From Naegleria gruberi (taxonomy: Eukaryota), in the NCBI GenBank assembly GCA_000004985.1, contig GG738855.1: a DNA stretch of 64,000 nucleotides; one strand, given 5' to 3'. The notes beneath the pieces are model-generated. The model searched no databases, was not told where the DNA came from, and saw only the letters and a program-made list of their open reading frames with translations. Numbering within the stretch: position 1 is the first letter of the stretch; every line of letters starts with the position of its first letter. Below are positions 14,702 through 62,480 of this stretch, one piece after another. Both the position numbers and the translations under genes were made by a program.

Positions 14702-14717
14702 AGTTTCCCGCCAATCA
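14702..14717. promoter_or_regulatory. TTTCCCGCCAATCAG, an E2F-like core fused to a CCAAT box, about 300 bp upstream of CEP41
   Basis: Direct observation. TTTCCCGCC is the reverse-orientation E2F consensus. CCAATCAG resembles an NF-Y site. Confidence 0.35.
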
Positions 14718-15014
14718 GAGTACAAATTTCAAATCAAAAAAAAATTCAACTTTGGATTTTTAATCTCCATTATACTGCACTGTTGTATTATGAGCTGCTA
14801 TTTTAAACCTATTGGTGATGCTAAGGTAGGTTGGGAATATATTGTATGATGATGATGGTCTAATTATTCTTTTGTTTTAATTTAAATCAAAATAACAACA
14901 ATAGATTTTGGAGAAGAAGGCACCATCAAGTGTTTGTTTTAAAGATGTAAGATCATCACTGGATACAGGAAAAGTAAAAAAGAAGGATGATTCAGGTAAG
15001 TTCAAAGATCTTGA

Positions 15015-15787
15015 ATGTTTCCGAACATTACTTTCCTAACAACAGGCGATTCTAAATTATTTAAAAAAGTTGAAAACTTTAAGAGAATGAAAGGAACTGA
15101 ATTAATGAAACTCATTCTTCTCAAATTAAATTCGCAAAATAACACCTCACAAACAGAGCCTCTAGAACATGCTCCACCATCACCAAGTGGATCAAAAAGC
15201 TTGTATTCATCTATGGCTTCTTGCACATTCTCTGAAGCCAAATTAGCAGTGCATCAATCTGATCCAATCCTTGTAAAAACCAGATTGAAGGAAGATGTTC
15301 ATGATGTGGATAATATGGTACTCTTATTGGATGTTAGAGATACAGATGAATATTCAGTATGTCACATCCAGACAGCTTATAGATATCCAGCTGCTACAGT
15401 GAATAGAACTGTTAATCCATTTACACCTGAAATGCTTTCTTTTGTAAGTGTTTAAATCTTTAAAATTGGAACCTTATTGGAATTATTAAGAAAAATCATC
15501 CTCTCAAAAAAATTGTAATATATGACAGGGACGAAAAGATTGCTTGTCCTGCTGCCAACCTTCTCTTTGAAAAGGGTTTTGATAATATTGTAGTTCTTAG
15601 TGGAGGCTTACAAGAATTCTTCCAAAAACACCCAGAGCTCATTGTTGGAGAAGTGCCAAAGGAATGGTATCCTCCTGTTCTAAAGAAGAAAACAAGACCT
15701 CCTTCTGTCGCTAGCTTGAACTCAACAAAGAAGGCTTCGATTACAAAAGAGAAGACGAAATCAACAGGACCAAAACCATTCAAGTAA
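15015..15787 (+). CDS. CEP41: centrosomal/ciliary protein CEP41 (inactive rhodanese domain), join(15015..15443,15491..15787)
   Basis: [41 protein letters not shown]|[41 protein letters not shown] aligns with human CEP41 across the splice. The 47-nt intron has a GTAAGT donor. An additional 5' exon is possible. Confidence 0.75.
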
Positions 15788-16006
15788 TTTAGAGGCAGTT
15801 TTTGTCAAGCAAAGACTTCAATTTGTGCATTAAATTCGCAGCGATGTTAACTCGTGTAACATCATTGATAAATACCAACAACAAGAACACGAATAAATTT
15901 TAAATTATGTTTTATTGTTTGATGATGATTAGGAAAAGGTGTTGGGTGGTAGAGAGGGAAAATTGAGAGTGAGTAAATAATCTGAGATTATTAAACATTG
16001 AAATGT

Positions 16007-16351
16007 TTAGAAACCGTGGACTTTAAGAGATTCCTTGGTGACAATACCTTCTTCGAGCAAAAATTCAGAAATATTGCCTCGTTGATCTCCAGAAACTTGG
16101 ATAACTTTACCTGCCTTTTCATCTTCTACTATTGTTCCGTTGCAACAGAATTTATGCTTGACACCACTGATGAATTTCTTAAACTTGAAATTACGAGGCA
16201 ATCCTTCAACAATAGTAACACATTTTCTACCGTTACGCTTTTGGACTCTGATGTGAACGAAGTTTTGTTCAGTAACAGTGGTTGAAAGTTGGTTGTTGTC
16301 TGCGGAATCTCTGAAAGGATCGAATGTTTGGAAGTTTTGAATTTCAGACAT
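16007..16351 (-). CDS. SUI1: translation initiation factor eIF1 (SUI1)
   Basis: MSEIQNFQTFDPF...HIRVQKRNGRKCVTIVEGL...IQVSGDQRGNISEFL...LKVHGF is near-identical in pattern to eIF1. The first ATG is at 16351, and the track start at 16366 is a TTG. Confidence 0.9.
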   Translation of the reverse strand: MSEIQNFQTFDPFRDSADNNQLSTTVTEQNFVHIRVQKRNGRKCVTIVEGLPRNFKFKKFISGVKHKFCCNGTIVEDEKAGKVIQVSGDQRGNISEFLLEEGIVTKESLKVHGF

Positions 16352-16513
16352 GATGATGCGATGCAATATTTTTTTGTGTTTTTTATTTAAAAAAATAATA
16401 TTACTTGTTTTTTATTGATGATTATTTTTAGTTTGACAAAGTCCATTTGAAATTTGTTATGCTCTGTTTACAATTCAAATTAAAGATGTAAGCCGATTCT
16501 AAAATATTAGCAT

Positions 16514-17152
16514 CTATTGACTGGTTGAAGTACCATTCTTATTTTCAATATCTTTTTTAATGTAAGAGAAATTAGCTTCGAGCTCTCTTTCCAATTCTTG
16601 TTCCTTCTCTTCACTCTTTTTAATCTTGTCATTGAACTTTTTAACCTTGGCTTCCAAATTCTTCCTCTTTACAGCCCAAATCAATAAACAAACAGAAATA
16701 AACAGAACACCAAATGCACGAATACCTCTATAAATAACCTTCTTTAACATGACTTCTGCATCCTTACGGGATTCCAATTCTTTTTGTAACATTTCTCTCT
16801 TTTGTTTCAGACTTTCGGCAGAGTCCATGATGAGAGAAGCTGTCGATTGCAAATTAAAAACATTTTCTGATGTTGTTGATTGTTCTGATGAGGTATTGGT
16901 TTGTTGTTCGTTGGTTGTTGTGGTAGGTTCTTGGGCTGGTGAATTTTCTACCACTGGTTCCGATAATGTTGAGGTTTTTTCTTCTTTACTTTCTGATTGT
17001 TCTGATGAGGTATTTGTTGTTGTTGTATTATTGGATAATAATCTATTAGAAAATTGAGTGGAAAAACATCTTGATGAGAAGGTAGTGGCCAATCTTTGGT
17101 TATATCCTGTTGGCAATCGGAGTAATTGTTTGGTAAATTGTCGTGATAACAT
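16514..17152 (-). CDS. hypothetical mitochondrial-type membrane protein (presequence-like N-terminus, T/S-rich region, one TM helix, C-terminal coiled coil)
   Basis: 212-aa ORF. It has a basic, hydroxylated N-terminus without acidic residues (MLSRQFTKQLLRLPTGYNQR), a TM helix AFGVLFISVCLLIWAV, and a KKSEEKEQELERELE tail. Confidence 0.35.
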   Translation of the reverse strand: MLSRQFTKQLLRLPTGYNQRLATTFSSRCFSTQFSNRLLSNNTTTTNTSSEQSESKEEKTSTLSEPVVENSPAQEPTTTTNEQQTNTSSEQSTTSENVFNLQSTASLIMDSAESLKQKREMLQKELESRKDAEVMLKKVIYRGIRAFGVLFISVCLLIWAVKRKNLEAKVKKFNDKIKKSEEKEQELERELEANFSYIKKDIENKNGTSTSQ

Positions 17153-17248
17153 TTTTTTGTTGTGAATTTAAAAATTGAAAATTATTACACAAGTACCTGC
17201 AAGGTAAATTGAAAATCTAAATCATTTCTTTAGGGTTTTATGGTACAA

Positions 17249-18123
17249 TTAATGAGAGAGTAAATTCAAACGATCTTTCCATGCTGTATCTGCCGAGTGG
17301 AAGGTAATAATTCTCTTTTCGTCTTGCTCATCTGCCACTTCAGAGTTCATGTCTGTATCGACTGGTTCGAAAATAATACAGAGAATGTGACATTTGGTTG
17401 TGTCTGACATGGCATCTTTGATGATAGTGTGATGTGGTTGCTTCATCACATCTTCTTCCAATAATCTATTTCCCCATTCAATGAGCGAAATTCCACTTGA
17501 AAAAACAGATGGTAAATCCAATCTATCAAATCGTTCCAATCTATAGAGGTCAATATGATGAATAGGACTATTAAATTATTATATTTGTTAAATTAAAATT
17601 CATTGTAATAATACGAAACTTACACTTTCTTGCTCGTCATTTTGGATTCGTAAATATTATCTAGCAAAAATGTTGGTGATGGAACATTGAGATTCATATC
17701 CTTTTCCAATACTCTGATAACGTGTCTTGCAAAAACAGATTTTCCACTTCCCATATCACCAATTAATAAGACAACATCTGTAGATTCCAACATGGATGAA
17801 AATCTTTCGGCCAAATTTCTAGTTTCTTCAACTGAATTGACAACAAAAGTTGCTTCAAAATAGGTGGGAGTGACCTGGGATGGTATTTCTCTAGCCGAAT
17901 ATTTATAATCATCCATTTTCTGTTGCTTTTTCAACTCTGGCCCATTTAAACAAGAGTGAGTACTGAATGTTCTTTCTCCGATGAATTTTGTAGATTGATT
18001 CCAATTAGTGGTAGTCCAGTTGGCCGCACTTCCAAGTATAAACTTTCCATTGTTTTTGGTGATGGATTGAATTTGATGGATGAGATTGATACTTCTTCTT
18101 CTGCTGCTGTTGCTCGATAACAT
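17249..18123 (-). CDS. tsaE: TsaE/YjeE-family P-loop protein (bacterial t6A tRNA-modification component), complement(join(17249..17567,17624..18123)). A long N-terminal extension suggests organellar targeting.
   Basis: It carries the P-loop LIGDMGSGKSVFARHVIR, then VPSPTFLL, then IHHIDLYRL, then ISLIEWG, which are the TsaE signature blocks. They are split by a 56-nt intron with a GTAAGT donor. Confidence 0.7.
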
Positions 18124-18477
18124 ATTGATTAATGGACAATAGAAGTCTACTACTGTGTGTGTTAATCAAAAATGAAGCTTTGAGGCAAGTTAAAGTTGTG
18201 TGATGATATTTTTTTTTTGTATGAAAGAAGGGTTTGATTCTGATCTTGTTTGTGTGGCTTAGAGTCTATTTATACAATGAAGCCGAAAATAGGAAGTATT
18301 ATTCAAGAATGTACTTGATAAATGACTACTTTAAATAATTTGATTTTACAATGCAAAGTATCATCTACAGAGAGTTTCTATTAAAAGTCAACTCTTGTCG
18401 AACTAAAGTATTTATCCTGTAGAACACAATGATGGAAATTAGTCATCTCCTTGTTCAGGAATAAGTATTTATTAAGC

Positions 18478-19865: not shown

Positions 19866-20151
19866 TTCTGGTTTTTATCTGTGGCCACTGGATGGTTGTT
19901 TGGAAGTAAAAGAATAGAAATTGTAAACTAATGAAAAGTGCGCGCAACGGGATGTGTTTGTGTTGTTTCTGCGAGTCAATTTTGTAAAACTCATGCTGGG
20001 GTTGAATTTATTTTGATACAATGTTATTGAAAAAGCTGACAAACAAACCTTATTGGAATATTTCACACACCACAAAAGAAAATTAGGAATCACAAATTGA
20101 TAAGGACCTTAACGATTCTTACTATACGCACATCAATAGTGAAAACAATAT

Positions 20152-20757
20152 TTATTGAGAGTAATAATCCTTTCTTGGTTTCCAAGTTTTCATTAGTTCA
20201 TTCTTTTGTTTCAAATTCTTAATAGCCTCATTTGGGTCAATAATTGCTAAATATCCAAAATTGAGTGGATGAGTTTGACACAAAGATGGTGTAGCTGTTT
20301 CAGATAATCTCTGATTGACCTCTACTAATTTTCCTTTCACATATGATTGTATTTCCAATGAGCAAATTGTTTCTGGAGACTCATTTGAGGCATATTCAAT
20401 TTTACAAATTATTGTGTTTGGTTGAATTGAGTGACATGGTAATTTTTGTTTGTTCTTTTTTCCATTGTTGTTATTTTGTTGTTTGACCTCCTTTGGTTTT
20501 TCATCATCCTCCATGGCATTATCGGATGGTGTTGTTGTAGTTGGTGGTTGAATTGGAAAATGCACTTTTACTACTCGGAAAGTATTTTGGCAAAGAAAGT
20601 GCTTCGGAGATAAACAAATCACAAATAAACCATTCTTATGTTCTTGAATACATAAATCATAATTTAAAATTGGGTCATTACTGGTTGTTGCAGGTTGAAT
20701 ATAGTAATCATCAATATTCTCGTTGATTAAAAGTTGGGTACGTTCACATTTACTCAT
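20152..20757 (-). CDS. hypothetical protein
   Basis: 201-aa ORF with an ATG start. It has a Cys/His-containing N-terminal half and an N/K-rich linker. Confidence 0.35.
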   Translation of the reverse strand: MSKCERTQLLINENIDDYYIQPATTSNDPILNYDLCIQEHKNGLFVICLSPKHFLCQNTFRVVKVHFPIQPPTTTTPSDNAMEDDEKPKEVKQQNNNNGKKNKQKLPCHSIQPNTIICKIEYASNESPETICSLEIQSYVKGKLVEVNQRLSETATPSLCQTHPLNFGYLAIIDPNEAIKNLKQKNELMKTWKPRKDYYSQ

Positions 20758-20784
20758 TTTTTTAAATTAATTTTAAATTATTAA

Positions 20785-22906
20785 TTATTTATTGAGAGTG
20801 AATTTCTTTCGTTGTTGCTGAGAGTAAGCTAGTGTATTATACATGTTCTTGATTTCTGCTAATTGACGTTTCAATTGATCATTTTCTTCAAGTAATCGTT
20901 TCTGTTCTTCTTCTAATTCTGATTGTTGTGCTTCTGGGTCTAATCTTGGTGGAGTTCTTTGTCTAATAGATGGTAGCTCAAAGCTCGAAGATAATTGTGA
21001 AGATTCTCCTAGTTTATCCTTGAGTGCAGTTATGTGTTGTTCATAATTTCTTTTCTGTGTTTCAATAATTTCTTGGTAGGTCCTGATTTCCTCTTCCTTA
21101 GATCGTTTACTATGCTCAATTGTGAGTTTAAGAGCTTCATTTTCATCTCTGAGGAGCATTATTTCTTCCTGGAGTTGTGATGTTGAAGGATAATCGAACG
21201 TATTTCTTTCTCCTTTCAAGAATTGACATTTTCTTTCCAGTTCTGAAGTTTGCAATCGTTCTTTCATCAGTATTTCATTAGTCTCGTTCAGCTTTTGCTC
21301 CAGCTCTGTTATTTTAGATCCAGTAACTTTTTTAAGTTCTTTCAACTTTTCCAATTCTATAGTTGTAATAGTGAGTTTTAATCTTAATTCCTCATCCGGT
21401 GTGGTATTGGAAATTGGCTGTTTGAGATCGAAACTAGTATTTTGAAATTGTAGAGTGTCTAGTGCTCTTCTACTTGTGCTTTGAAGCTCATTTTTCAAAT
21501 ATTTGATGATTTCATCCTTTTGTTCAATGTCTTTGCCCTATAGAAAATATTAAGCAAAGCTTCATTAAAAGTACTACCTACCAGCCTTTTGATTTCTTGC
21601 TCTAATTGTGGAGCAGATGGTATAGATGCTCCAGATTTTGGCCTTCTTTTCTTTAAATTGTCAATTTCTGCTTTCAACAAATCGACAAGCTTGTTGTCAT
21701 TCTCGGATTTCTCAATCATTCTGGCCTGTTTGGCCTTAATCTCATTGTAGGTCTTTTCTAAAATTTTGTTTCTAGCCACAGATGCATCCAACTTATTCTT
21801 GACAGCTTTGATTTCTTCCACTTTTTCAGTAATTTCTTTTTTCAAATCGACAACTTCATTCCTTCTTTCTTGTTCAAGTTTTTCAATTGCTTTTCTTTGC
21901 CTCTCATCCACAGAAACAGTAGATAGTGTTGAAATGGAGCTGTTTTCATTGGCAGAGACTGATTGAGGAGATATACTATTAATTGTTGATGAGAGAGGAC
22001 TTGGAATATTTGAAATTGTAGGAGAAGAGATTGTTTGTGATTCTAACTTCTTTTGGAGATCCTTGACCTTATTTTTAAGTAAATAAATTTGTTGAGCTCT
22101 TCCTCTAAACCCGTCGCTATTGGTAAGAAGTGAATCAATCGACAAGTCATCACCAACTTCTTTTTGAATAAGAGCTCTCAGTTTCAAATTTTCATTCTTG
22201 TGCTTTTCTCCTTGCTCTCTAAGCATTTTCATTCGTTTCTCATAAGTTGCAGCCCTTTCTTTAAATTGTTTAAGTAATTTCATTGTTTCATCCTCTCCGT
22301 CCTCTTCTTCCACAGATCCTGAATTGGTTTCATTTAAGTTTTCCCTCACCTTAGAACTAAAATGTCTCAGATTGTTATTATTTGTGACTGTTATTGATCG
22401 ACTCGATTGTTGTAATTGTTGTACCTGTTGAGTAAGAACTGCAACTTTAGACTTTTCCTTATTCAATTTTACAATTATATTCTTATTTTTTTTTGCCAGC
22501 TCAATGAGCTTTTTGTCTCTCAAGTCTATTAATTCCTCCGAATCTTGATCATGAAGTCATTAAATTGAATCTTGTTGTAATATTACATACCATCCAAAAA
22601 CAAAGCTTCTACTTCTCGGTTTGTATTCCTCAACTCTTCCACAACTTCTTTTAAATCTCGTATTTCACTCTCCTTTGCTTCAAGCTCCTCTAGGAGAGAT
22701 TTATTTACATCTGGAGAGCCTTCCATTGCAAGTTTATCCAACTTGGCATAGGATGATGGTTTGTTGTTTCCTAAATCCTCAATATTTGGAGGAGTTTCGT
22801 CTCCGCTACTATTCTCTTCATCCAATTCCTTTTTTTTGATGATCTCCTTTGATTTTAATTCTTGTTTTGATGACGATTTTTGTAGTTGTTGTTTACTTGT
22901 CGACAT
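20785..22906 (-). CDS. long coiled-coil protein, complement(join(20785..21537,21582..22543,22591..22906))
   Basis: Three track ORFs join in frame through a 44-nt intron (GTAGGT donor) and a 47-nt intron (GTATGT donor). The product is continuous heptad-repeat sequence. Confidence 0.6.
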
Positions 22907-22925
22907 TTTTTTATTTGAATGAAAA

Positions 22926-22941
22926 TTGTACTCTACTTTTG
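22926..22941. promoter_or_regulatory. E2F-like site TTTTGGCGGGAAAG immediately upstream of the coiled-coil gene ATG at 22906
   Basis: Perfect TTTGGCGGGAAA 20-35 bp upstream of the ATG. Confidence 0.4.
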
Positions 22942-23005
22942 GCGGGAAAGTTTATTCAACCTCCCAACTGTTATCAAGACTTAAAACAGAGGAAATATAT
23001 TTTGA

Positions 23006-25585
23006 TTACATGATCGAACAACACTTAGCCTCCTTTTCTTGGACTGGTTTTCCTGGGTTCTTATTTGGGAGTGGTGTTGGTGGCATGAAAATAGGAGATA
23101 GTTGAATATCATCTGTGTGAAGAGTGTCATTAACATTCTTCGTTTGATTATTCTGTTTAGTGAGTGGAGGAGAGTTGGACTCAGAAGCATTAAGGTTGAC
23201 TGCAAAAATATTCTCATCAGTTTTGAGAGCACTGTTACTGGAGGAGGGTTTTTCCTTGACTGGAGTTTGTGGAGGAGATAGCTGGTATGGTGTGATGTAC
23301 TTTTCATTTTCTGGACCTTTCAAATCCTTGATATGAAAAAGAGAAAAGAATGTAGACTGAAGGGATGGATCCATTGGGTGTGGCTCCAACTTTTGTTTTC
23401 TATCAGCAAAAGGTACTGGTAAATAGAGATTTTCTCGTAATTTCCACTCATATTTGGCTCCTCTTTCGAATGGTATAGTTCTATTGTTCTGCACAACATC
23501 AATATTGTAATAGAAGGATTTGGACAGCTCATCTCTTTCCAACAAATTAGATCCTCCTCCCACGTTTACAAATGAATAGTAGAATGCAAATATTTTGAAT
23601 AATGATTGATTTCTTGAAGGGTCATTTTCAAAAATCTTGTAAAACTCTACAAAACAAGGCACATCTTCCTCAACCCAATCAAGCTCAGTAAGCTTTTTGT
23701 CAAGGAAAAGAGAAATACTGACATTGAGTATAAGTCTATAAGAATTATGGTGTGAGGAAGATATTATATCATCAACGTATCTGGTAACATCAGTTTTTCC
23801 AAAAAATGCTATTGAATGTTGCTCAATAGATCTCTTTTCAATAGCCTTGTTAAAGCTCATATCTATTACTTCCATAACAAAGTCTCGAGCTATAACTATG
23901 GAATCATAGGAGGGCTTGTGTTGTGGACTGGTTGGAGGAGAATAGAAAACGTCAGAAATATATCCAACTGGTGTTGGAGTACTAGACTTGGACTCACCAC
24001 TCATTTTAGAGAATGAAGATGATCGTGTTCTTTCCTTGTAGTTTTCCCTTCTCCACTGCATTAGTTTCCAATTTTTTGGTTGGCTTCTATCGTGCACTTC
24101 AAAAGAAGAAAAATCATTGTCATACATTTCAACACTCTCCGCAGTACTTATTTCACTAAACGTATCAGTGACATCATATTGATCTAGCTCTTGTTTAGTT
24201 TCAGGCAAAGAAGTTGCAACTGTAAGAGGACTGTTTGGCCGAGATGTGGTGAAACTTTTAGAATTTCCAGTTGTGTTGGGCCTAGAAGGTTTCTTCTTTG
24301 CTTTCATGTCCCCTATTGTTGGAGTTTTCACTCTTTGTATTTGAGTATTTACAGGAACTCTTTCCACACTCTTCCTTACATCAGTTACTATGGATGTAAG
24401 TGATGATATACTTCCTCTTCGAGGTGAATTTTGGGCTGATGGTGGTGGAAACATTGTGGAATTTGTGGGTATGGCATCTTTAAGACTTGGTTTCTTAACA
24501 GCAGTTGAACCAATACTACCACTCGATGTATTGGCTGTACTTGTCTTATCCCACTGTTGCTTCTTCTTTTCTGAGGGTTCTTTACATTTAATTTCATCGG
24601 TTGGATTGAAAAATTGAGGCTTATATCCCATATCCTTAATTGGTTTTGAAGGTTCCGATCTCCTTAATGGATCAACGGCATTTGTTTTTGTTTTTGGTTT
24701 AGATTTTGTTATTATTACTGGTTGAGGGGGTGGAGGTTGGTTAATTGTTTCAATTGTGGCTTGTTTCTTTGCTTTTTCATCATTTACATATTTTGACTCG
24801 TCTTCAAGAACTGGGGAAGCTTGGAAAAACTCATCCTCAGAAGAATCTCCAATTAAAAAGTCGTCTTCCTCCTTTTTTTCTACTTTGGAGCCGGGCACTG
24901 AGAATGTTATTTGAGTTTTTGGATTGCCTTGAATGTTAGGAGTAAAAAGCCACTCTCCACTTTCGTCTTCTTGAGCCTCGCTCAGTAATTTTGAGGCAGC
25001 CATCAATCTAATGTTATGAGCAACAGATTTTCTGTCACTAATATTGGGTAAAACCTTATCCTCTGTTAGAAGGTCTTTTTGAGATCCAGGTTTAAGGTTG
25101 AGTAGTTTTGCAGAATTTCCTAACGGAGAAGGGTAATGAATATACTTCTCATTAATTAAATAATTATTTACACCTTTCTTTTCAATTAGATTTCCACTTG
25201 GAGTTTCATATTTGATGTCTGGCATTAGAGAATCCATTTTTGTAATATAATATGCTTTGTCCCTCTCCTTTTTTACCATTATCTCCTTTTCAAAGAATTC
25301 CCCATCCATAAAACGTTTCTCTTCATCACCCATTGAGAGGTTTGCTCTCGGCGTTAGAATTGTTGGAGAAAGCAAAATGTCACTCATTTCAAGAGGTGAT
25401 AATTTACTTCCTGTTGGATCAAAGAAAGATCCTCCTAAAGATCCATTCAAATCATCAAATTCATCATCCAAAATACTTGTTTGTTTGAGCATGGTAAGAT
25501 TGGTATCCATCTCCCGCTGCATCTCCTCAATGGATTGTTGATTATCAAACAAATCCAACTCGCTATTGTCCAACAAACTAGACAT
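23006..25585 (-). CDS. large S/T/P-rich hypothetical protein with a conserved-looking C-terminal globular region
   Basis: 859-aa single ORF with an ATG start (MSSLLDNSELDLFD). It has proline/serine-rich low complexity. The C-terminal roughly 250 aa are compositionally normal. Confidence 0.45.
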   Translation of the reverse strand: MSSLLDNSELDLFDNQQSIEEMQREMDTNLTMLKQTSILDDEFDDLNGSLGGSFFDPTGSKLSPLEMSDILLSPTILTPRANLSMGDEEKRFMDGEFFEKEIMVKKERDKAYYITKMDSLMPDIKYETPSGNLIEKKGVNNYLINEKYIHYPSPLGNSAKLLNLKPGSQKDLLTEDKVLPNISDRKSVAHNIRLMAASKLLSEAQEDESGEWLFTPNIQGNPKTQITFSVPGSKVEKKEEDDFLIGDSSEDEFFQASPVLEDESKYVNDEKAKKQATIETINQPPPPQPVIITKSKPKTKTNAVDPLRRSEPSKPIKDMGYKPQFFNPTDEIKCKEPSEKKKQQWDKTSTANTSSGSIGSTAVKKPSLKDAIPTNSTMFPPPSAQNSPRRGSISSLTSIVTDVRKSVERVPVNTQIQRVKTPTIGDMKAKKKPSRPNTTGNSKSFTTSRPNSPLTVATSLPETKQELDQYDVTDTFSEISTAESVEMYDNDFSSFEVHDRSQPKNWKLMQWRRENYKERTRSSSFSKMSGESKSSTPTPVGYISDVFYSPPTSPQHKPSYDSIVIARDFVMEVIDMSFNKAIEKRSIEQHSIAFFGKTDVTRYVDDIISSSHHNSYRLILNVSISLFLDKKLTELDWVEEDVPCFVEFYKIFENDPSRNQSLFKIFAFYYSFVNVGGGSNLLERDELSKSFYYNIDVVQNNRTIPFERGAKYEWKLRENLYLPVPFADRKQKLEPHPMDPSLQSTFFSLFHIKDLKGPENEKYITPYQLSPPQTPVKEKPSSSNSALKTDENIFAVNLNASESNSPPLTKQNNQTKNVNDTLHTDDIQLSPIFMPPTPLPNKNPGKPVQEKEAKCCSIM

Positions 25586-25689: not shown

Positions 25690-25703
25690 ATTTGGCGCCA
25701 ACT
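25690..25703. promoter_or_regulatory. Palindromic TTTGGCGCCAAC motif in the divergent promoter between the genes starting at 25585 (minus strand) and 25998 (plus strand)
   Basis: Direct observation. It is GC-rich within an AT-rich spacer. Confidence 0.35.
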
Positions 25704-32370: not shown

Positions 32371-34459
32371 TTAGAATAGGTTTTTGAGTTGCTTATTTTC
32401 TTCTCTTAATGATCTCACTTCCTCGGTTAAATTTTCTACTTGTTTTGAAAGTTGTTCAATTAGAGAGAATGTCTGCTCTTGTTGAATACAGAATTGACGT
32501 AAAACATCTACATGAATGTTGGTGAGATCTTGGTGAATTGAACTCTGAAGATTGAAAATGGATTCTTGAAGTACATCCTTCATCACATCTTTCATTCTTT
32601 CCTCAGAAATACTATTTGACACAACTGGGGACCCAGTCGAGAGAGTTTGTTTCTGTTGTTGCTGTTGTCTAGATAGATGTGGTGATGAACTAGTTGCTAT
32701 TATTGAGGATGGAAGGGATTCGTCATCGATCATTTCATTGTGTTTTTGATTGTCTTCAAAAGATAACTCATCAACATTTTCGAGTGAGGGAGGAGTTTGG
32801 GGATGATAGTTAGAGGGTGGGAGAATATTCTCATTATTGGTGTCATCGACAGTGGGAGAGTTAAATTTAGGCTTTTTGGTTGGTCCTGAGGGAGAAAATA
32901 CAGACCTATCATCCTGAGTTGGTTTTAGGGATTTGTATATGGATAATCGATTATTTGTAGAATTTTCTAACATCTGACTGCTATTCAGATCAAGACTTTT
33001 GAAAGTGGTTGGTTTAAAAGGGTTTTCCAGGGAGAGTTTTGTGTTAATTTTGGAACTCAAGTGTTCCATTTGAGCTTGTTTTTTGATGTCCTCCAGTGTT
33101 GGAAATTGTGTAGATCCAATCTCAATACTTTTACCTGTTTTAACAGGAGAGAAAACATCCATACCATGATTTCTGTCTATGTTAAGTGTAGGTGGTTTAA
33201 CTTGTCTTTCTTGAGGAATGGAAGGAGGGGTTGATGGCTTTTTGAGAGATGAATAGGATTCAATGGTTGGGGATTCTCGTGGTCTTTGTACTTCAGATTG
33301 AGCTGTCTGCTGTTTAGCAGTGGATTTCTTAGATTTAGATTGAAAGGTTAGTGTTCTAATATATCCCATATCGACAGTAAGTTCAGTAATTGGACTCGTT
33401 GTTGATTTTTTCAAATCATAAAGGAAAACACTTCCATTAGATGTTCCTACAGCCATTATTGATCCATTATCCAAGTATGAAAATGAAGATATTGGTTGAG
33501 AAACTCGAATATTTTCCACAATCCTAATTTTAAAATTATATGATTATTCTACTAAACTATATGAAAATGCTTACTTTTTTTCCTTAATATCATAAAAGTA
33601 AATGTTCTTATCCAATCCTGCTGAAGCAAGGAGAGCAACATTTTGCTTTGAAAAATGTACTGCTACACATGGAGCTTGATGTTGATTAGGAAATGAGCAA
33701 TATGGCTTTCCAGAGATGGTATCCCATATTGTTACACTTCCATCATCACTGGCACTTGCCAATAGGGTTTTGTAAAAAGGTGAATATTCCAAAAATTTGA
33801 TTGATTGTTGTGTATTCGAAAGGGTGCATGAGAGAGTATTCGATACAATATTATGAATCAGAATTGTACCACTGGCATCACCACTCGCAACATGTTGATC
33901 ACCCTCGCTGAATGTGACACACGTGATAATTTCCTTATGTCCCTTAAATGTATTGATGACTTCCTTCTTTTTCAGATCCCAAATTTTTACGATACATGAG
34001 CTGCCTCCCGAACAAAGTTTGAGAGATGATTCTCCTATAGAAATTGATTGTACTTGTTCTTCAATATTTAATTTTCCAAATATTTCACCTTCAGGTGTTC
34101 CCATAATTACACTTCCATCATCACTACACGAAATGAGTACCTTATCTTGTTTTCACTCATTGGTTACAAATATTTTAATTGAAATACATACTATTGTGAT
34201 TCCATTTGGTGTCATTAATTGTTCGGTTTGGGAAATTTAACGAATTATAAGGACTCAATTTTCCATCCAATGTATTCAATTCTAATATCGATATTTGTTC
34301 GGATCCCACTATGGCCAATTTGTACAATGTTGTGGCAGATGTTGTGTTCGCATCTGATGATGAAGATGTCTTTGCATTTGTCCTATTACTGTTAGAAGCA
34401 ACACTTCTGGAACCTATTGGTGCAAAAGTTGAAGATGAAGGGTATTGTTTTGGATTCAT
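32371..34459 (-). CDS. NEDD1: NEDD1/GCP-WD (gamma-tubulin complex recruiting WD40 protein), complement(join(32371..33523,33575..34145,34192..34459))
   Basis: The WD40 blocks align with NEDD1 (IVKIWDLKKKEVINTFKGHKEIITCVTF...SDDGSVTIWD...GLDKNIYFYD). The C-terminal helix ...VRSLREENKQLKNLF matches the NEDD1 ...EIERLREENKRLRAHF. The two introns are 51 nt and 46 nt, with GTAAGC and GTATGT donors. Confidence 0.8.
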
Positions 34460-34474: not shown

Positions 34475-34487
34475 TTTGGCGGGAATA
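34475..34487. promoter_or_regulatory. E2F-like site TTTTGGCGGGAAT in the 250-bp divergent NEDD1/NARFL promoter
   Basis: It lies about 20 bp upstream of the NEDD1 ATG at 34459 and is a consensus TTTGGCGGGAA. Confidence 0.4.
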
Positions 34488-39685: not shown

Positions 39686-39854
39686 TTTTTTTTGGAGCGG
39701 GCTTATTCAATCTGCAATTTGGAAAATAAATAGTATGTGAAATACTGTGGTCAACTACTGTTGATTCCGTAAAATTGATTATACTCTTCTATTATTAATT
39801 ATATTTATGTAAATATTATAAAATTGTTTACAATAAATTGTAAACCACAAAAAA

Positions 39855-40169
39855 ATGAGAGAAATTATTTCTATTCACGTAGGCAATGCTGGAATCTCTT
39901 TCCAAGAAGTTTTAACAAGTAACTCTATATTTTGCTTTAAAACAAAATTATTTCGCCCAGTTCAATTTGAAGAAATTTCCAAATTTTCTGATTTGATCGT
40001 TTTAGCTTCGGATGATGGAAATTGTAATCAAAATGATGATTTGCAAAGTAAAAGAGGAAAACAAGAGAAGAGACTGAAGGAAAATGAATTTAGAAATAGG
40101 GGATTTTCTCAAGTTGTTATTGATGTTCACAATAGGAAATTTAAATTTATTTATGAAAATAGAAAATGA
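39855..40169 (+). pseudogene. Tubulin N-terminal fragment. Only the first roughly 14 codons (MREIISIHVGNAG) are tubulin-like, and the remainder of the ORF is unrelated.
   Basis: ATGAGAGAAATTATTTCTATTCACGTAGGCAATGCTGGA is about 80 percent identical to the 5' end of the alpha-tubulin gene at 59206. Similarity is lost after codon 14. Confidence 0.35.
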
Positions 40170-47453: not shown

Positions 47454-50400
47454 TTATTTCTTCTTGTTGAGTCTGGATAATTCCTTCTTGTAATTTTCAA
47501 CCTTGAGCTTTTCTTCATTGTAATTCTTTGTAATTTTGGCTTTGGAATCTTCAGCGAGGGCTAATTGCTTCTTTAACTTTTCAACTTCTGCCATTACTTG
47601 AGCTGCATTTCCACTCTTCAAAATGTTGAGCTGATCCATCAATTTGGAAATGTTTTCTCTCAAATCATTTACCTCAATATCTTTCTTGACAATTATTGTT
47701 TTCAATTCCTCAACTTCTTGAGATGATGTTTCCTTAACAATAATTGGTTCCACAACTGCCTTCTTAGATTCTTCCAGTTCAATATTCATCTTTTCCAAAA
47801 TTGAAACCTTAAGTGAGAGGTCTTGTACAACCTTCATTTGTTCATTGATTTCTTCCTTATCCTTTACAGATGAATTTTCGGCTGAGCTAACTTTGTCTGT
47901 CAAGTTCTTAATTGTTGCTTCCAAAGCATCAATCTTCTTCTTACTTTCAGTTCTTTCAGCATTTTGTTTTTCCTTAGCTTCCTTGAGAGCCTTTTCTTTG
48001 GCACTTTTCTCCTTGTCCAATTGTTGGTTGAGTGAGGATTGAGACTTTTCCAGAGATTCAATTCTTTTAGTAAATGAAGATACATCCTTTGAGTCTTTTG
48101 ATTTCGAGCAAACTAGATCGAAATCTGCTCTCAACTTTTCAAATTCTGATTGTCTCTTTGATAATTCGCTCATTAATTTTTCCACTCTATTATTCACTTC
48201 TGTCAATTCTGATGATTGTTTTTCTGCTTGTTGAGATTTTTGTTTGAGTTGATTTTCAATTTCTTCTCTTTCTGCCTGCATTTCCTTAATACGGGCTTCA
48301 AAAGATTCCTTGATTGAAGAAGTGTCTTGTTCGGACAATTGTTTTTCTAGAAGTTCAACCTTCGTTTGAGATTGTTCCCTTTCTGTTGCAGAAACTTCTT
48401 GCAACTCTTTAAGGGTTTGTTGAGCCTTTGTTAATTGCAATTGAATATCATCTCTTTCCTTTAAATTTTGTACAGTATCGGAAGCCTTTGATTGAATCAA
48501 TTCGAGTATCTTGGCGTCCTTTTCTTTTACAATCTTGGTTAATTCTTGATTGGAGTGTTTGAATTGCTCCATCATCTTTCTAACCTCATCAACTTCAGAC
48601 ATGGCAGTGTTCATAACAGTCTTCATTTGAGCCTGTTGTTCAGCCACCTTCTTGTGTTTTTCAATCTCTTCTTGGAAAGATTTGATTTGTTGTTTCAACT
48701 CAATATTCTCGGAAGCAACAACTTTGCTCTCGGAATCTTTGTTATCATCTTGTTTAAGAATTTCAATTTCTTCTTGGAGTGTTGTAATAGTGTTCTTGAG
48801 CTCTTGATTTTCAGTTGAAGCCTTCTCCGTTAATTCCTTTAATATGTTGCTTGTTTCTTGGAGAGAATGTTCTAATTTGGTGATCATCTCTGTAGATTTC
48901 TCCTTCTCCCTTGAAAGAGTGGTTAAGGTTTCATTCAACTTTTGCATTTCTCTATAATGTTCTTCTCCCTTTTCCTTGGCAGCAATCAATTCCTTTGTTA
49001 ATGTTGCAACAGTTTCACTTCCCAGAGCAACCTCTTTCTTTAATTTTTCAACTTCACTCATAGTGGAATTAAGAGCATCTTCCTTCTTTTTACGTTGATC
49101 ATTAATTGAAGAAATGGTTTCATCTCTTTTTTGTAAATCTGATTTGAGTGCTTCTACCGTTTGATTCAACTTTTGGATCTGTGATTCCTTTTCTTTGGTG
49201 GTTTTTTGAGTGGTTGTAAGTTTGTCAGTGCATTCTTTTAATTGCTTCTTTCCAGCATCAACATCTACTCTCATTTGATTAATTTCAAAGTTTCTTGTCT
49301 TGAGCTCTGACTTGAGCATTTTGATATTTTCAATATCGTTCTTGTGTTGCTCTCTTTCCTTTTGTAATGTTTCAATGACTTGCTCGTTGTTCTTCAACAC
49401 TTCATTACTTTCATAAATTATCCTTTCTTGTTCTTCCAATGTATTGGTTAATGACAACAATTGGTTCTTTAAACCTTCGGATTCTAAAACCAAACTTTCG
49501 ATAGCTTCTTCCTTTGCATGAATCAAATCCTTATTATCAGAAATTACCTTATCCTTACTCTCAGATTCCGTCTTTGTTTGTTGTAAAGCCTGAATGTTTT
49601 TAGCAATTATTTCCTCTTTTTCTGCAATCTCCTTTTCCAGTTCCTTGTTTCTTGTTTGGTTTGTTTCATCTTGGGAAGAAAGCTTGGTAACTTCAACAAG
49701 CAAGCATTCACTCTTTCTCTTTTCCTCATCCCTTTCATGCTTGATATGTTCAACCTCTTTGGAAATTTCCTTGAATTTGCGAGAGGTTTCTTCAATCTCC
49801 TTGTTCAAGTCGAGATTACAATTTCTGAGCAATTCATCTTTCTGTAACAACTCCTTCTTAGTGTCATCAAGTTGTTTCTTTAATTGTTCAACAACTTCAG
49901 TAGAAGGAGATGGAGAAGTAGCTGGAACAAATGATTGAATCTTTGCCAATAATTCTTCTTTTTCCTTCAAAAGTTTAGCAATTTCCTTGGCATCTCTTTG
50001 TTTGGCTTGAGTGAGTTTTTCAACTTCCTTAGTCTTCTCAAGAACGGATCTTTCCTTTGCGATAACGGTATCCTTCAATGTGGTAATTTCCTTAGTTTTA
50101 GAGGAGACTTGTTTTTCAAGGGAAGCAAATTTAGTCTCTGTTTCGGATTTGATATTTCTCAGCTTTTCAAGCTCCACCTTCATGTTTGATACTTCATTAA
50201 CAAACTGTTCTCTTTCTTCTTTGAGTTGTTTCTTGTCTTCCTTAATTATCTTTGATTCCTTCTTTTGGCTTGTAAGGGCATTGTTCAAATCAAGCTTTTC
50301 CTTCATCAAGGTAGCAATTCTGGAATCTTTCTCTGTTATTTCCTTTTGCAATGTTGCAATTTCTTCCTTTTGTTGATCTTTGATTTTCTCCATGTTGGAC

Positions 50401-50720
50401 AATTTAGATTGAATACTCTTGTTTTCCTTTTCCACAGCCTTTATGCGTTCTGCTTGTTCTTCAAGTTTTCTCTTTGAGGCTTCCTTTTCGGATTTCAGAC
50501 TGAAAACTACTCCCAAAAGAATAGCAATACAAGTAGTCAATATAATTGATTGGTATGAAAGACTACTACTAATAGTATCAAGCAGGAAATTACTACTTGG
50601 TGCACAATAGACCGAAGAAGAAAACAACATTGCTAGGGTCAATGATTTAAGACCCAAGTAGGAAGAATGGTTTACCAAGTTCATATTTTCTATATTGTTG
50701 TTGGTGTTTAAATTAAACAA
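47454..50720 (-). CDS. giant coiled-coil protein with N-terminal membrane anchors (kinectin/golgin-like)
   Basis: 1088-aa single ORF with two N-terminal hydrophobic segments followed by about 1000 aa of uninterrupted heptad repeats rich in E/K/L/Q. Confidence 0.6.
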   Translation of the reverse strand: MFNLNTNNNIENMNLVNHSSYLGLKSLTLAMLFSSSVYCAPSSNFLLDTISSSLSYQSIILTTCIAILLGVVFSLKSEKEASKRKLEEQAERIKAVEKENKSIQSKLSNMEKIKDQQKEEIATLQKEITEKDSRIATLMKEKLDLNNALTSQKKESKIIKEDKKQLKEEREQFVNEVSNMKVELEKLRNIKSETETKFASLEKQVSSKTKEITTLKDTVIAKERSVLEKTKEVEKLTQAKQRDAKEIAKLLKEKEELLAKIQSFVPATSPSPSTEVVEQLKKQLDDTKKELLQKDELLRNCNLDLNKEIEETSRKFKEISKEVEHIKHERDEEKRKSECLLVEVTKLSSQDETNQTRNKELEKEIAEKEEIIAKNIQALQQTKTESESKDKVISDNKDLIHAKEEAIESLVLESEGLKNQLLSLTNTLEEQERIIYESNEVLKNNEQVIETLQKEREQHKNDIENIKMLKSELKTRNFEINQMRVDVDAGKKQLKECTDKLTTTQKTTKEKESQIQKLNQTVEALKSDLQKRDETISSINDQRKKKEDALNSTMSEVEKLKKEVALGSETVATLTKELIAAKEKGEEHYREMQKLNETLTTLSREKEKSTEMITKLEHSLQETSNILKELTEKASTENQELKNTITTLQEEIEILKQDDNKDSESKVVASENIELKQQIKSFQEEIEKHKKVAEQQAQMKTVMNTAMSEVDEVRKMMEQFKHSNQELTKIVKEKDAKILELIQSKASDTVQNLKERDDIQLQLTKAQQTLKELQEVSATEREQSQTKVELLEKQLSEQDTSSIKESFEARIKEMQAEREEIENQLKQKSQQAEKQSSELTEVNNRVEKLMSELSKRQSEFEKLRADFDLVCSKSKDSKDVSSFTKRIESLEKSQSSLNQQLDKEKSAKEKALKEAKEKQNAERTESKKKIDALEATIKNLTDKVSSAENSSVKDKEEINEQMKVVQDLSLKVSILEKMNIELEESKKAVVEPIIVKETSSQEVEELKTIIVKKDIEVNDLRENISKLMDQLNILKSGNAAQVMAEVEKLKKQLALAEDSKAKITKNYNEEKLKVENYKKELSRLNKKK

Positions 50721-50829: not shown

Positions 50830-50843
50830 ATTTGGCGCCAATA
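50830..50843. promoter_or_regulatory. Palindromic TTTGGCGCCAAT motif about 115 bp upstream of the giant coiled-coil gene ATG at 50720
   Basis: Direct observation. Confidence 0.35.
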
Positions 50844-50850
50844 GAACTCT

Positions 50851-56993: not shown

Positions 56994-56998
56994 AAAAA

Positions 56999-57781: not shown

Positions 57782-57844
57782 ATTTTTTCAGATTTGAGAA
57801 TAATCTTAATAATTTTTTGAAAAAGTCTCAATGGAGTAATTAAT

Positions 57845-59212
<1,368 letters not shown>

Positions 59213-59335
59213 TTATTAAGGATTGTATTTTGCAAGTTTCTCTATAATGGAGGACGAGCGATTTTTTTTAATTTTGTTTCTAAGAACAAGCAACCCTGTT
59301 ACGTTATTTAAACAAAACTACAACCTTTTGTAATA

Positions 59336-59426
59336 TTGTGGCGCCAAAATAAAATACAAAAATTTGGCGGGTTCAGTACAATTCCTTATTAATAACATTT
59401 TTACAGTTATTTTGGCGGTAAAATAT
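59336..59426. promoter_or_regulatory. Cluster of three E2F-like GC-rich motifs 130-220 bp upstream of the alpha-tubulin ATG
   Basis: The motifs TGTGGCGCCAAAA, ATTTGGCGGGTT and TTTTGGCGGTAAAA lie in an otherwise roughly 80 percent AT spacer. Each is approximately TTTSGCGS, and the first is palindromic. Confidence 0.4.
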
Positions 59427-59501
59427 GTGAGTACTCATTTCTGTTGTAAACTTTAAAATTAATCCAAAAAATCTTTCCAATGTACTATTGTAATAAGTTA
59501 A

Positions 59502-61472
59502 CTATTTATTATTATTATTATTGTTATTGTTATTATTATTGGCATTATTCCTATTGTTTGGATTATTCATAAGGTTCATACCACCATTTACCATATACAT
59601 TGGTTGATTGAAAGGAAGATTTGGCATGTTTGGCATATTTGGCATGTTTGCCATGTTGAATGGCATAACAAAATTATATGGAAATGGCATTGGATTGGAC
59701 AAGATTAATCCTTGTGTATTTTGATAACCAGGTATTGTAGTTGGCACTGTTGGTGCTGTGGGAGGGTTCAAGTTTGGTGGTAATGCTTGAGATGGTTGTG
59801 GTTGTGTTGGTGGTGGCTTTTCTGAACATTTTTCAATCAGTTCAGTACCTATTGGGAATGATACAAAAACAGGTTCAGAGGCAATGGTGTTGGCGGTGAT
59901 GGTTTCCTGTTCCTTTGTTTTATCAAAGTATATCTTCAAGTATTGATAAGGGAATAGTAATAGGGATGACTTGTCATCAATTGGAGCAGTAATGAAATAT
60001 TTCTTCTTGGCCATATTGTTCAATAGAGTTGGAATTTTAGTTGCCTGGGTTGACGGTGTTAATTTCCATAAATGAACTTTCATATCCTTCTTTACAAGAT
60101 TTGCAATTATACTAGTTTTAAGGGACATGAGATTCTTGGTAATCTTGATATCTTTTGGCCATTTACTGGAATCAACAACAATTTCACTTTTAGCATAACC
60201 TTCCAAATGTCCAATAATAGAGTTAGGAGAATCAATACTGAATGTTAATTTGTGAATTTGTACATGGTTAGGACCAATTGTGTAGTCATTAATAGTTTTG
60301 GCAGCAGTACTAGATGTAGAATTTCCACTAGGTGTGCTTCCTGTAGAATTTGGAGTTGAAGTAGTTCCAGATGTGGTTGAATTGGTAGGAGTACTTCCAT
60401 TTGTTGGAGTTGTGGTAGTTGATTGATTGTTGGGAGTGGTTACAGTGGTTGGAGGTGTGGTTGAGGTATTATTGGTTGCTGAGCTAACTGTAGTTGGTGC
60501 AGTACTTGGAGCCAGAAAGCTTGGTGGTGGAGTTGTGACAGTTGTAATGACAGGAGGAATTACAACACCTTTAGCAACACTGGCTTTTGGTGGCAACTTT
60601 GGAGTAACATCCTTTTCTGTTTTGATATGGGTTGTGTTGGAGGCATTTGTGTTGATGCTACTATTGTTGGTATTAGCGCTGGCATTACTGTTTGAATCAT
60701 CATTCTTTTCATTCTTGTCATTCTTCTCCAAAGGTTGCAGTTTGAGTTTGTCTTTTTCAACTCCTCTCAAATCTATCAAAAGACCATATTCTGTATTGGG
60801 ATAATGTAAATTCATAGCATCTAGAATGAGTCTCGATAATCCTTCACTAATACTGAAAGGATCTGTAGAATTACTTGTGTTAGAGGTAACCATTGATTGT
60901 GGATCTAGCTTGCAAGCCTCTGTTATTTTTTTCCATTTTCTTGAAATGCTAGGGGAGAGTATTGAGATAATAAGACCCTTCTTGACCATATCTTTTACAA
61001 TTTCCATTGCATTCTTTCCAACATACATTCCATTCAAAATGCAAGGGTGCTCTGATGGAGTGGATGAACAAATCATCACATACTTTAAAGCATCCTTGTC
61101 CCATTCCAAATCAGTGATTGAAGTTGCAAGAGCTTCACTGACACAACTATGGGCAATACCACCAGCATAGAATTTTTCCTTCAATCCTTCCAAAATTTGG
61201 TAAAATGTGGAATAATCTTTAATGAAAGGAATTACCTTTACCAAAAAATCACCATTTGGTGGATAATTTTGAAATAAAACAGCAGAAAATTCCGTATTCT
61301 TATTTCTCAAATACAACATGTAGGGCACAATGACTCTGTTTAAAAAGTAGGCAAAATATGTCTTCATTCCTGTTGTTGTGTCGATTAAAATACATATTTG
61401 TTTAGGTTGATTATCAGATGGGCCATGTGCAGAAGATGATTTGGGAATTGAACCCGATCTATTACTTAGCAT
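59502..61472 (-). CDS. MED25: Mediator subunit MED25-like protein (N-terminal vWA-like domain, S/T-rich linker, ACID/PTOV-like domain, Pro-rich and poly-N C-terminus)
   Basis: The vWA blocks ICILIDTTTGMKTYFAYF, FYAGGIAHSCVSEALATSI, YVMICSSTPSE and GLIISILSPSI align in order with the MED25 vWA domain. The poly-N tail is encoded by (AAT/AAC)n. Confidence 0.55.
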   Translation of the reverse strand: MLSNRSGSIPKSSSAHGPSDNQPKQICILIDTTTGMKTYFAYFLNRVIVPYMLYLRNKNTEFSAVLFQNYPPNGDFLVKVIPFIKDYSTFYQILEGLKEKFYAGGIAHSCVSEALATSITDLEWDKDALKYVMICSSTPSEHPCILNGMYVGKNAMEIVKDMVKKGLIISILSPSISRKWKKITEACKLDPQSMVTSNTSNSTDPFSISEGLSRLILDAMNLHYPNTEYGLLIDLRGVEKDKLKLQPLEKNDKNEKNDDSNSNASANTNNSSINTNASNTTHIKTEKDVTPKLPPKASVAKGVVIPPVITTVTTPPPSFLAPSTAPTTVSSATNNTSTTPPTTVTTPNNQSTTTTPTNGSTPTNSTTSGTTSTPNSTGSTPSGNSTSSTAAKTINDYTIGPNHVQIHKLTFSIDSPNSIIGHLEGYAKSEIVVDSSKWPKDIKITKNLMSLKTSIIANLVKKDMKVHLWKLTPSTQATKIPTLLNNMAKKKYFITAPIDDKSSLLLFPYQYLKIYFDKTKEQETITANTIASEPVFVSFPIGTELIEKCSEKPPPTQPQPSQALPPNLNPPTAPTVPTTIPGYQNTQGLILSNPMPFPYNFVMPFNMANMPNMPNMPNLPFNQPMYMVNGGMNLMNNPNNRNNANNNNNNNNNNNK

Positions 61473-61598
61473 GTTATTGTGTTGTTATGATGAGAAGAAA
61501 AAATTATTCTTCTTTCTGCTCCGATTCGTGATTAAAAAAAATATCCAACAACAAGGATGTAATAATTTAAATTAGTTAATTTTTTTTGAATGTTATTT

Positions 61599-62378
61599 TT
61601 AATTTTGGTGCAAAACACTTGAGGCTTTGAGCAATTCATTCAACTTTTCTTCATCGTCCTCCTCTTCTTGTCTTCTTCGAGCTTGTTCTTCCTTCTTATT
61701 CTTTTGAGTTTCTTCCCAAACAGCTGCCCACATTTCCATACACTTACTGTGATAAAATAGTTGAGAATGAACAAACTCTTCAAATACTGTCCTCAAATCT
61801 CCAAGTCCTTCGTAGAGCTTTTTTTTCAATCCTCTATTTTCTCTAAGTTCTCTAATTTGATCATCTACAGATGTTGGCACCTTTCTTCTCTTTTTAATAT
61901 TCTTTTTTTGAGTTTTCACATATTCTGTATTGAAATCTCTTATGAGCTTCCATGTTTTTGAGAAACTCTCTATATCATTCGATTGTAATCTGTCAATTCG
62001 TTCTTGAAGAATAACATTTTGATTATTTGTATAAATGAATCCTTGGTGAAGAATAGCAAGAAATGTTTGTAAATCCTTATGATCCTTAACGTCAAGAGTT
62101 GATATTTTTTCATCGAGTGGGAGAAGAGACTTGTTGACAGTTTGTAAGCTCTTCTCATATTCTCTCAACTGAAATTTAAAAAAGTCAGCAAAGTCTAGCA
62201 CCTTCGTTCCTCTCTCCAGAGACTGTGAGGCGTAAAAGAGCATTGAATCGGAAGAGTTGGGATTAAGTGATGTTCCTAACGATTGTTGAAGTTGTTTTAG
62301 AGAATCATCAGAAGATCCTTGTGTTGGCATTCCACTAAGAGGAGATATTGGTGTTTTTGGTGTTGTTGTTCCTAACAT
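61599..62378 (-). CDS. hypothetical helical protein
   Basis: 259-aa ORF with an ATG start. It is predicted to be alpha-helical, with a basic KKNIKKRRK patch and an acidic C-terminus. Confidence 0.4.
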   Translation of the reverse strand: MLGTTTPKTPISPLSGMPTQGSSDDSLKQLQQSLGTSLNPNSSDSMLFYASQSLERGTKVLDFADFFKFQLREYEKSLQTVNKSLLPLDEKISTLDVKDHKDLQTFLAILHQGFIYTNNQNVILQERIDRLQSNDIESFSKTWKLIRDFNTEYVKTQKKNIKKRRKVPTSVDDQIRELRENRGLKKKLYEGLGDLRTVFEEFVHSQLFYHSKCMEMWAAVWEETQKNKKEEQARRRQEEEDDEEKLNELLKASSVLHQN

Positions 62379-62437
62379 TTTATGTACAATAAATAATAAT
62401 AAGGGAGTTGGTTCTTTTTTTTTAAAAAATGTAACAC

Positions 62438-62480
62438 TGTTGGCGCCAATAATTATGTATAATTTGGCGCCAAATTTACA
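62438..62480. promoter_or_regulatory. Two palindromic GGCGCC motifs (TGTTGGCGCCAATAAT and AATTTGGCGCCAAATTT) 60-100 bp upstream of the gene starting at 62378
   Basis: Direct observation. The second motif is a 17-nt perfect palindrome. Confidence 0.4.

Follow-up and report, generated by a model that had tools for sequence, protein, structure and literature searches.

Naegleria is a classic model in which centrioles are made from nothing within an hour, and this needs fast and coordinated transcription of tubulin and basal-body genes. How such genes may be brought under common control is the question raised by a 64-kb stretch of the Naegleria gruberi NEG-M genome (contig GG738855.1; hereafter the window), in which a short E2F-like element recurs upstream of seven genes, among them those for the flagellate alpha-tubulin, NEDD1 and CEP41. 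Transcripts of basal-body genes arise de novo in an early cluster of co-expressed genes (PMC4819266). Naegleria is without RFX, FOXJ1 and XAP5, and the regulator of its cilia was called unknown in a 2025 review (PMC12183034). A literature search found no cis-element or transcription factor described for the Naegleria basal-body programme, no description of the present element and no paper tying Naegleria promoters to E2F. From the sequence analysis it is well supported that the element is an E2F-type site that is real, non-random, promoter-proximal and gene-specific. That such sites would put a battery of basal-body and flagellar-apparatus genes under one differentiation switch is a reading to which we give slight preference.

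The window, whose proteins correspond to EFC47330 to EFC47347 in exact protein look-ups, is compact, with 34% GC and few and short introns, and about 41 genes were mapped in it from open reading frames (ORFs), Pfam matches and homology. Intergenic DNA makes up 13.3% of it and has a GC content of 28%. CpG is strongly depleted window-wide (observed/expected 0.38), which may be a sign of cytosine methylation in the N. gruberi genome, and motifs containing CG are therefore rare and conspicuous. Relative to expectations from dinucleotide-preserving shuffles (n = 100), the 10-mer core TTSSCGSSAA (TT[GC][GC]CG[GC][GC]AA) is found 7 times where 0.18 are expected, and none of the 100 shuffles reaches 7. 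SSCGCCAA gives 13 strand matches at nine places, compared with 0.40 expected in shuffles of the window, and adds two places, 59340 and 59364, both in the alpha-tubulin promoter, to the seven sites listed by the initial annotation. The classical E2F 8-mer TTTSSCGC occurs 7 times (1.1 expected), always in a promoter that carries the motif and in six of the seven such promoters, and 9 of only 12 SSCGSS hexamers in the 64 kb are motif sites. All nine places are intergenic (P ~7e-7 for seven independent intergenic regions). The sites lie 17-206 bp upstream of seven start codons, distances being measured to the ATG and not to transcription start sites, and outside the motif their flanks have no mutual similarity. 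All seven of the sites first listed exist, three of them at slightly shifted coordinates (22928 is 22938, 62441 is 62440 and 62466 is 62463). The motif that they share is the 10-mer core, which matches all seven; the literal 11- and 12-mers first proposed match at four places only.

The sites come in two forms, one palindromic (TTGGCGCCAA) and one asymmetric (TTCCCGCCAA). TTGGCGGGAA is present three times in the window and TTGGCGCCAA four times, one of the four within the perfect palindrome TTTGGCGCCAAA. Of the 11 asymmetric sites, nine show CCCGCC in the direction of the coding strand, which is a trend only (two-sided p ~0.07, by hand arithmetic). These variants are the same as the published in vitro preferences, obtained by systematic evolution of ligands by exponential enrichment, of E2F-DP and of E2F homodimers: E2F2-DP1 prefers (T)TTGGCGGGAA(A), E2F homodimers GGCGCC and E2F8 TTTTTGGCGGGAAAA (Morgunova et al., 2015, PMC4686757). 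N. gruberi has a single representative each of NgruE2F, NgruDP, NgruDEL (E2F7/8-like) and NgruRB (Medina et al., 2016, supplementary files 4 and 6). In Pfam searches NgruE2F has E2F_TDP and CC-MB domains, NgruDP has E2F_TDP and DP, and NgruDEL has two E2F_TDP domains. The DNA-binding domain of NgruE2F matches that of human E2F4 in the E2F4-DP2-DNA crystal structure (1CF7) with E = 7e-25, and its recognition helix is that of human E2F4 residue for residue; the next-best structure matches are the coiled-coil/marked-box domains of E2F4 and E2F5. The element is regarded as E2F-type because its variants match E2F preferences and because the organism has E2F, DP, DEL and RB. The consensus, the promoter-proximal position, the encoded E2F and DP and the conservation in orthologous promoters described below are all those of an E2F response element, and the E2F-like promoter element of the initial annotation thus stands. 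The element belongs to a known class, while the regulon is potentially novel. It agrees with the E2F-DP response elements of animals and plants (TTTSSCGC, TTGGCGGGAA, palindromic TTTGGCGCCAAA) in identical sequences, in the presence of heterodimer and homodimer variants, and in lying near the gene start. It differs in its targets, which classically are DNA-replication and cell-cycle genes; those recognisable in Naegleria, which makes centrioles only when it differentiates, are the genes for flagellate tubulin, NEDD1 and CEP41.

Five of the seven genes are covered by orthologous loci of N. fowleri, N. lovaniensis and Willaertia magna, which together make up about 195 kb. In the 250 bp before each annotated start, where the background chance of an E2F-like core is about 6%, such a core is found in 9 of 10 orthologous promoters as opposed to 13 of 84 other promoters (Fisher p = 4e-6), and 6 of these 13 share a bidirectional intergenic region with a target. 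Upstream of NEDD1 the site is ATCCCGCCTT (CCCGCC) at about -31 from the ATG in N. fowleri and ATTGGCGCCAC (TTGGCGCC) at about -38 in N. lovaniensis; N. lovaniensis CEP41 has TTTTTGGCGCCC at about -46. The alpha-tubulin gene has CCCGCCAA at -160 in N. fowleri, with distance and orientation as in N. gruberi, and CCCGCC at -133 in Willaertia. For the two lineage-specific genes, encoding proteins of 259 and 859 amino acids (aa), the sites are TTTCCCGC at -110 (N. fowleri) and TTGGCGGGA at -91 (N. lovaniensis) for the former, and TTTTTGGCGCCAATTTT at about -30 (N. lovaniensis) and TTGGCGGGC at about -40 (Willaertia) for the latter. An unbiased k-mer ranking restricted to the orthologue promoters places CGCCA first (8/10 vs 7/78, p = 3.8e-6), followed by GCGCC, CCCGC, CGCCAA and CCCGCC. 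The core consensus was used for the promoter test in place of a 16-mer weight matrix trained on the window, which gave the CCAA flank too much weight and failed to pick up orthologues with half-sites. For all five genes the upstream-side neighbour varies among species, and the element therefore travels with the gene and not with the locus.

It might be argued that so short a motif recurs by chance or as a by-product of repeat or mobile-element remnants or GC-rich islands, with no regulatory role. One perfect copy does lie inside the Willaertia ELP2 coding sequence, showing that not every copy is functional. On the other hand, the shuffles never reach the observed counts, the sites are all intergenic with dissimilar flanks, and they have been kept in orthologous promoters although the NEDD1 proteins of these species are only about 50% identical and the alignment upstream of alpha-tubulin conserves only a short block beside the start codon. 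The shuffle controls and the cross-species promoter test together effectively refute a chance origin, which is left with a very small probability. The short block itself consists of an A-run, CGCT and TC(C/T)TCATTATA(G/A)AGA (window 59230-59275; fetched loci L003:2930-2975 and L013:5950-5985). Present in N. gruberi, N. fowleri and Willaertia as well as in a metagenome copy, it probably represents core promoter or 5' untranslated region.

Three of the genes downstream of the sites can be named, and the identities first proposed for them hold. The alpha-tubulin gene (57848..59206, minus strand) encodes a protein identical to TBA1_NAEGR, the flagellate isoform. It is preceded by GGCGCCAA at 59340..59347 (TTTTGGCGCC on the gene strand), 134 bp upstream of the ATG, by AACCCGCCAA on the gene strand at 59364..59373 (minus), 158 bp upstream, and by a weaker third site, TTACCGCCAA on the gene strand at 59412..59421 (minus), 206 bp upstream. 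The NEDD1 orthologue (32374..34459, minus; 663 aa after splicing of introns 34191-34146 and 33574-33524) has its best matches outside Heterolobosea in sea-urchin and plant NEDD1 (E = 1e-61 and 1e-54). The string TTTGGCGGGAAT at 34475 contains its site, 34476..34485 (minus), which reads TTCCCGCCAA on the gene strand and lies 17 bp upstream of the ATG at 34459. The CEP41 orthologue (14790..15800, plus, the 3' end being approximate) is a multi-exon gene with a Pfam Rhodanese domain, for which a spliced model was built. It aligns over its full length with human CEP41 in BLASTP (E = 1e-34), a match that is supportive rather than formal evidence, and heterolobosean orthologues were found. A rhodanese gene beside the N. 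fowleri alpha-tubulin gene was also considered as CEP41 and rejected, its product being a Cdc25/arsenate-reductase-like protein. Upstream of CEP41 the string GTTTCCCGCCAAT at 14703 is in reverse orientation and has a CCAAT box fused to it, as initially annotated; the site TTCCCGCCAA at 14705..14714 (plus) is 76 bp upstream of the ATG at 14790.

The other four targets are less informative. A coiled-coil gene (20788..22906, minus) has the string TTTGGCGGGAAA at 22938, and its site at 22939..22948 (minus), which reads TTCCCGCCAA on the gene strand, precedes the ATG at 22906 by 33 bp. It encodes about 660 aa with weak Rootletin and CCDC113/96 coiled-coil matches only, and what the initial annotation called a long coiled-coil gene is not one of 6 kb. 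The 859-aa protein NAEGRDRAFT_64718 (23009..25585, minus) has no Pfam domain and is confined to Heterolobosea, an exhaustive HMMER search giving homologues only in N. lovaniensis and Willaertia; for this and the coiled-coil proteins, searches of Pfam and of PDB sequences returned no family match. Its site, the palindromic TTGGCGCCAA at 25692..25701 within the string TTTGGCGCCAAC at 25691, is 107 bp upstream of the ATG at 25585 and also 297 bp upstream of a divergent PAP2 gene. The 1076-aa protein (47457..50684, minus), encoded by the giant coiled-coil gene of the initial annotation, indeed has the motif and a long coiled coil; the coiled coil follows N-terminal hydrophobic segments that form a membrane anchor, and a centrosomal role is a guess. 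The palindromic TTGGCGCCAA at 50832..50841, in the string TTTGGCGCCAAT at 50831, is 148 bp upstream of its ATG at 50684 and lies 10 bp past the stop codon of the upstream gene. The 259-aa all-helical protein NAEGRDRAFT_64736 (61602..62378, minus) is likewise found in Heterolobosea only. Two sites precede its ATG at 62378, the palindromic TTGGCGCCAA at 62440..62449 (string TTGGCGCCAAT at 62440), 62 bp upstream, and the perfect 12-bp palindrome TTTGGCGCCAAA at 62463..62474, about 85 bp upstream. Pfam gave no match for this protein. Its PDB sequence match to the last BAR-domain helix of CIBAR1 is weak (E = 0.007 to 0.018), an AlphaFold2 model from a 4-sequence alignment has three long helices at low confidence (predicted local distance difference test score 55), and Foldseek retrieved only generic helical bundles from the PDB with this model; it is not claimed to be a CIBAR/FAM92 protein.

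A bias of the motif towards centrosome and basal-body genes, as initially annotated, is borne out by the genes that can be recognised. All three microtubule-organising-centre (MTOC) or cilium genes recognisable in the window carry it, compared with 4 of about 38 others (p ~0.003); the remaining four targets are not identifiable as centrosomal. The contrast with unrelated housekeeping genes, which had been put forward as decisive, also holds for the most part. About 34 window genes, either housekeeping genes or uncharacterised ORFs, are without the motif, and these include the genes for thiolase, two ASC-type channels, NOPCHAP1, a TPR protein, Pex2/12, SUI1, TsaE, PAP2, LeuRS, SRP54, NARF, GNAT, Kelch-RING, a C26 peptidase, RlaP, CCDC53, Med25 and erythromycin esterase. 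A few unrelated genes, in the window and in the relatives, do have sites.

With alpha-tubulin, NEDD1 and CEP41 among the targets, control of a basal-body battery is plausible and partly supported. On this reading an NgruE2F-DP heterodimer would be expected to bind these sites near the transcription starts of a small gene battery, comprising flagellate-specific alpha-tubulin, the gamma-tubulin-complex adaptor NEDD1, the centriole and cilium protein CEP41 and others, and binding would place them under one switch. NgruDEL may bind the same sites, and RB may modulate the outcome of this switch. Its likeliest role would be to co-induce, or de-repress, basal-body and flagellar-apparatus genes as the amoeba gives up the growth cycle to become a flagellate. 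Removal of nutrients is the trigger of differentiation in Naegleria. E2F may act in it either by activation or by the lifting of a repression linked to RB or DEL. Binding by the E2F family, transcription driven by the sites and a timing set by the differentiation programme are what we infer for the battery. A further step would make the E2F4/5-like NgruE2F with DP, possibly with RB or DEL as a gate, the long-sought master regulator that induces the genes for de novo basal bodies and the flagellar apparatus; this is possible and is put forward tentatively.

Several observations weigh against such a battery. The sample is small, consisting of one 64-kb window and about 195 kb from relatives, and four of the seven targets (two coiled-coil, two lineage-specific) are, as described above, not recognisable as basal-body genes. 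In an eighth region an E2F-like site, TTCCCGCGC at 11047..11055 (plus), lies between an ASC-channel-like gene (ATG 10977, minus) and NOPCHAP1 (ATG 11283, plus), neither of which is MTOC-related; it may be part of the same regulon or a lone site. In the relatives, E2F-like sites are also present at the genes for hemerythrin, Med25, Nipped-B and a methyltransferase. Finally, a CG-less variant, TTTCCCTCCAAAA, which has no exact counterpart within the window, stands in place of the motif or beside it in Willaertia and in a single N. fowleri promoter.

The last two points each bear on a different explanation. Sites at proliferation genes would be expected if these were ordinary cell-cycle E2F elements, turning G1/S or mitosis genes on and off with proliferation and having no particular bearing on the amoeba-to-flagellate switch. 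Both motif and factors are those of the canonical cell cycle, E2F/DREAM has numerous centrosome and tubulin genes among its targets in animals and plants, and NEDD1 could serve spindle assembly. In Willaertia, TTTACCGCCAAAAAA lies at about -46 (L013:4482) in front of a typical proliferation gene, that for the cohesin loader Nipped-B, which hints that the motif may serve classical proliferation genes too. Epsilon- and eta-tubulin rise in mitosis as well as in differentiation (Kennard preprint, 10.1101/2024.01.08.573270). Against this, the flagellate tubulins, to which the alpha-tubulin of the window belongs, are reported to be rapidly induced on differentiation, with no differential expression in mitosis (same preprint); Naegleria amoebae are described in the literature as dividing without centrioles, and gamma-tubulin and basal-body proteins have been reported absent from them (PMC4819266). 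CEP41 is without a known mitotic role. Replication genes are missing from the window and the fetched loci, Nipped-B being the sole proliferation-type gene there with a site. A purely cell-cycle function is considered unlikely.

The CG-less variant, in turn, might point to another, possibly lineage-specific factor whose preference resembles that of E2F, such as a C2H2 zinc finger recognising CCCGCC and CCCTCC, or NF-Y acting on CCAAT. TTTCCCTCCAAAA fits canonical E2F less well because canonical E2F contacts the CG core. In Willaertia NEDD1 the TTCCCTCCAA core of this variant starts about 16 bp upstream of the ATG, and TTTCCCTCCAAAA is also found at Willaertia alpha-tubulin (-199), at an N. fowleri gene for a 279-aa protein and, in two copies, on a metagenome alpha-tubulin contig (the loci listed being L007:9982, L013:5802, L009:9861 and L002:1-40). 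GAGGGAA is enriched in the same promoters, being present in 4 of 10 target promoters and 1 of 78 background promoters, and a duality of GC box and CT box is typical of Sp/KLF-type fingers. CCAAT accompanies several sites (14710, 50837 and 62445 in the window, and N. fowleri alpha-tubulin). It is missing from most, however; only 3 of 9 window sites have it, the remainder reading CCAAA or CCAAC, and NF-Y was rejected as the common factor on these grounds. The palindromic GGCGCC with symmetric TT...AA flanks, seen at 5 of 9 window sites, is the signature of a dimeric E2F-type winged helix and not of Sp/KLF, and N. gruberi has the full E2F, DP and DEL set with an unchanged recognition helix. TTTCCCTCCAAAA itself, which is seen mainly in Willaertia, might represent a degenerate E2F site or else be recognised by a second factor. 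That a different factor accounts for the whole pattern seems quite improbable.

Should E2F-family sites indeed control a basal-body battery, the closest parallel would be found in the multiciliated cells of vertebrates. There, Multicilin or GEMC1 together with E2F4/5-DP1 activates centriole biogenesis outside the division cycle (PMC12183034, PMC6210342; Ma et al., 2014, as cited there). Both systems would use an E2F4/5-type factor, E2F4 and E2F5 being the best solved-structure matches of NgruE2F. The hallmark Multicilin-E2F4/5 targets are PLK4, STIL, SAS-6, DEUP1 and CCNO, with CEP152 also among the core centriole-assembly genes that it drives, and the window and the loci from relatives contain none of the hallmark genes. 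The geminin-family co-activators are, to our knowledge, restricted to animals; they were not looked for in Naegleria. A link between the two programmes would be a matter of deep ancestry or of convergence. It is tempting to speculate that the coupling of E2F to centrioles in vertebrate multiciliated cells is ancient eukaryotic wiring, which Naegleria would have detached from the division cycle and reused for differentiation. The RFX (X-box) and FOXJ1 regulons of animals and choanoflagellates and the XAP5 regulon of Chlamydomonas likewise join genes of the ciliary apparatus by one promoter motif, but motif and protein family are unrelated to the Naegleria element. In quiescence repression by DREAM/RB-E2F the same sites and factors can repress and release genes upon a change in growth state; the direction would be opposite, with the Naegleria genes coming on, and not going off, at exit from the cell cycle. 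The conserved site names a concrete candidate, a one-gene E2F family with DP, DEL and RB partners, and since the motif can be scanned genome-wide and compared with existing time-course data, the question of the regulator becomes testable.

Some further features of the region may be mentioned. The orthologues of the 259-aa gene in N. fowleri and N. lovaniensis are divergent from, and share a promoter with, the gene for the flagellar protein Enkurin, and Med25 follows (L009:8781-10840 and L011:8857-10834). N. gruberi has retained Med25 as a neighbour, with alpha-tubulin on the far side of it, and on the upstream side an erythromycin-esterase gene takes the place of Enkurin. Between 16.5 and 22.9 kb, where the coiled-coil gene of about 660 aa is the last, there are several genes, TsaE among them. 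Directly downstream of the coiled-coil gene is a small separate gene (20155-20766, minus) with a weak GCV_H-like match, which we take to resemble Abitram/FAM206A. When relaxed, the motif also matches GGTTCGATTCCCGGC (L005:20574 and L006:20925), by eye a lookalike of a transfer RNA T-arm, and such matches would be a predictable false positive in any scan of a whole genome. An ORF of 110 aa at 39837-40166 (plus), which gave no match in Pfam, starts with MREIISIHVGNAG, a tubulin-like N-terminus, and then diverges; a fragment of a tubulin gene, or a tubulin pseudogene, is the probable explanation.

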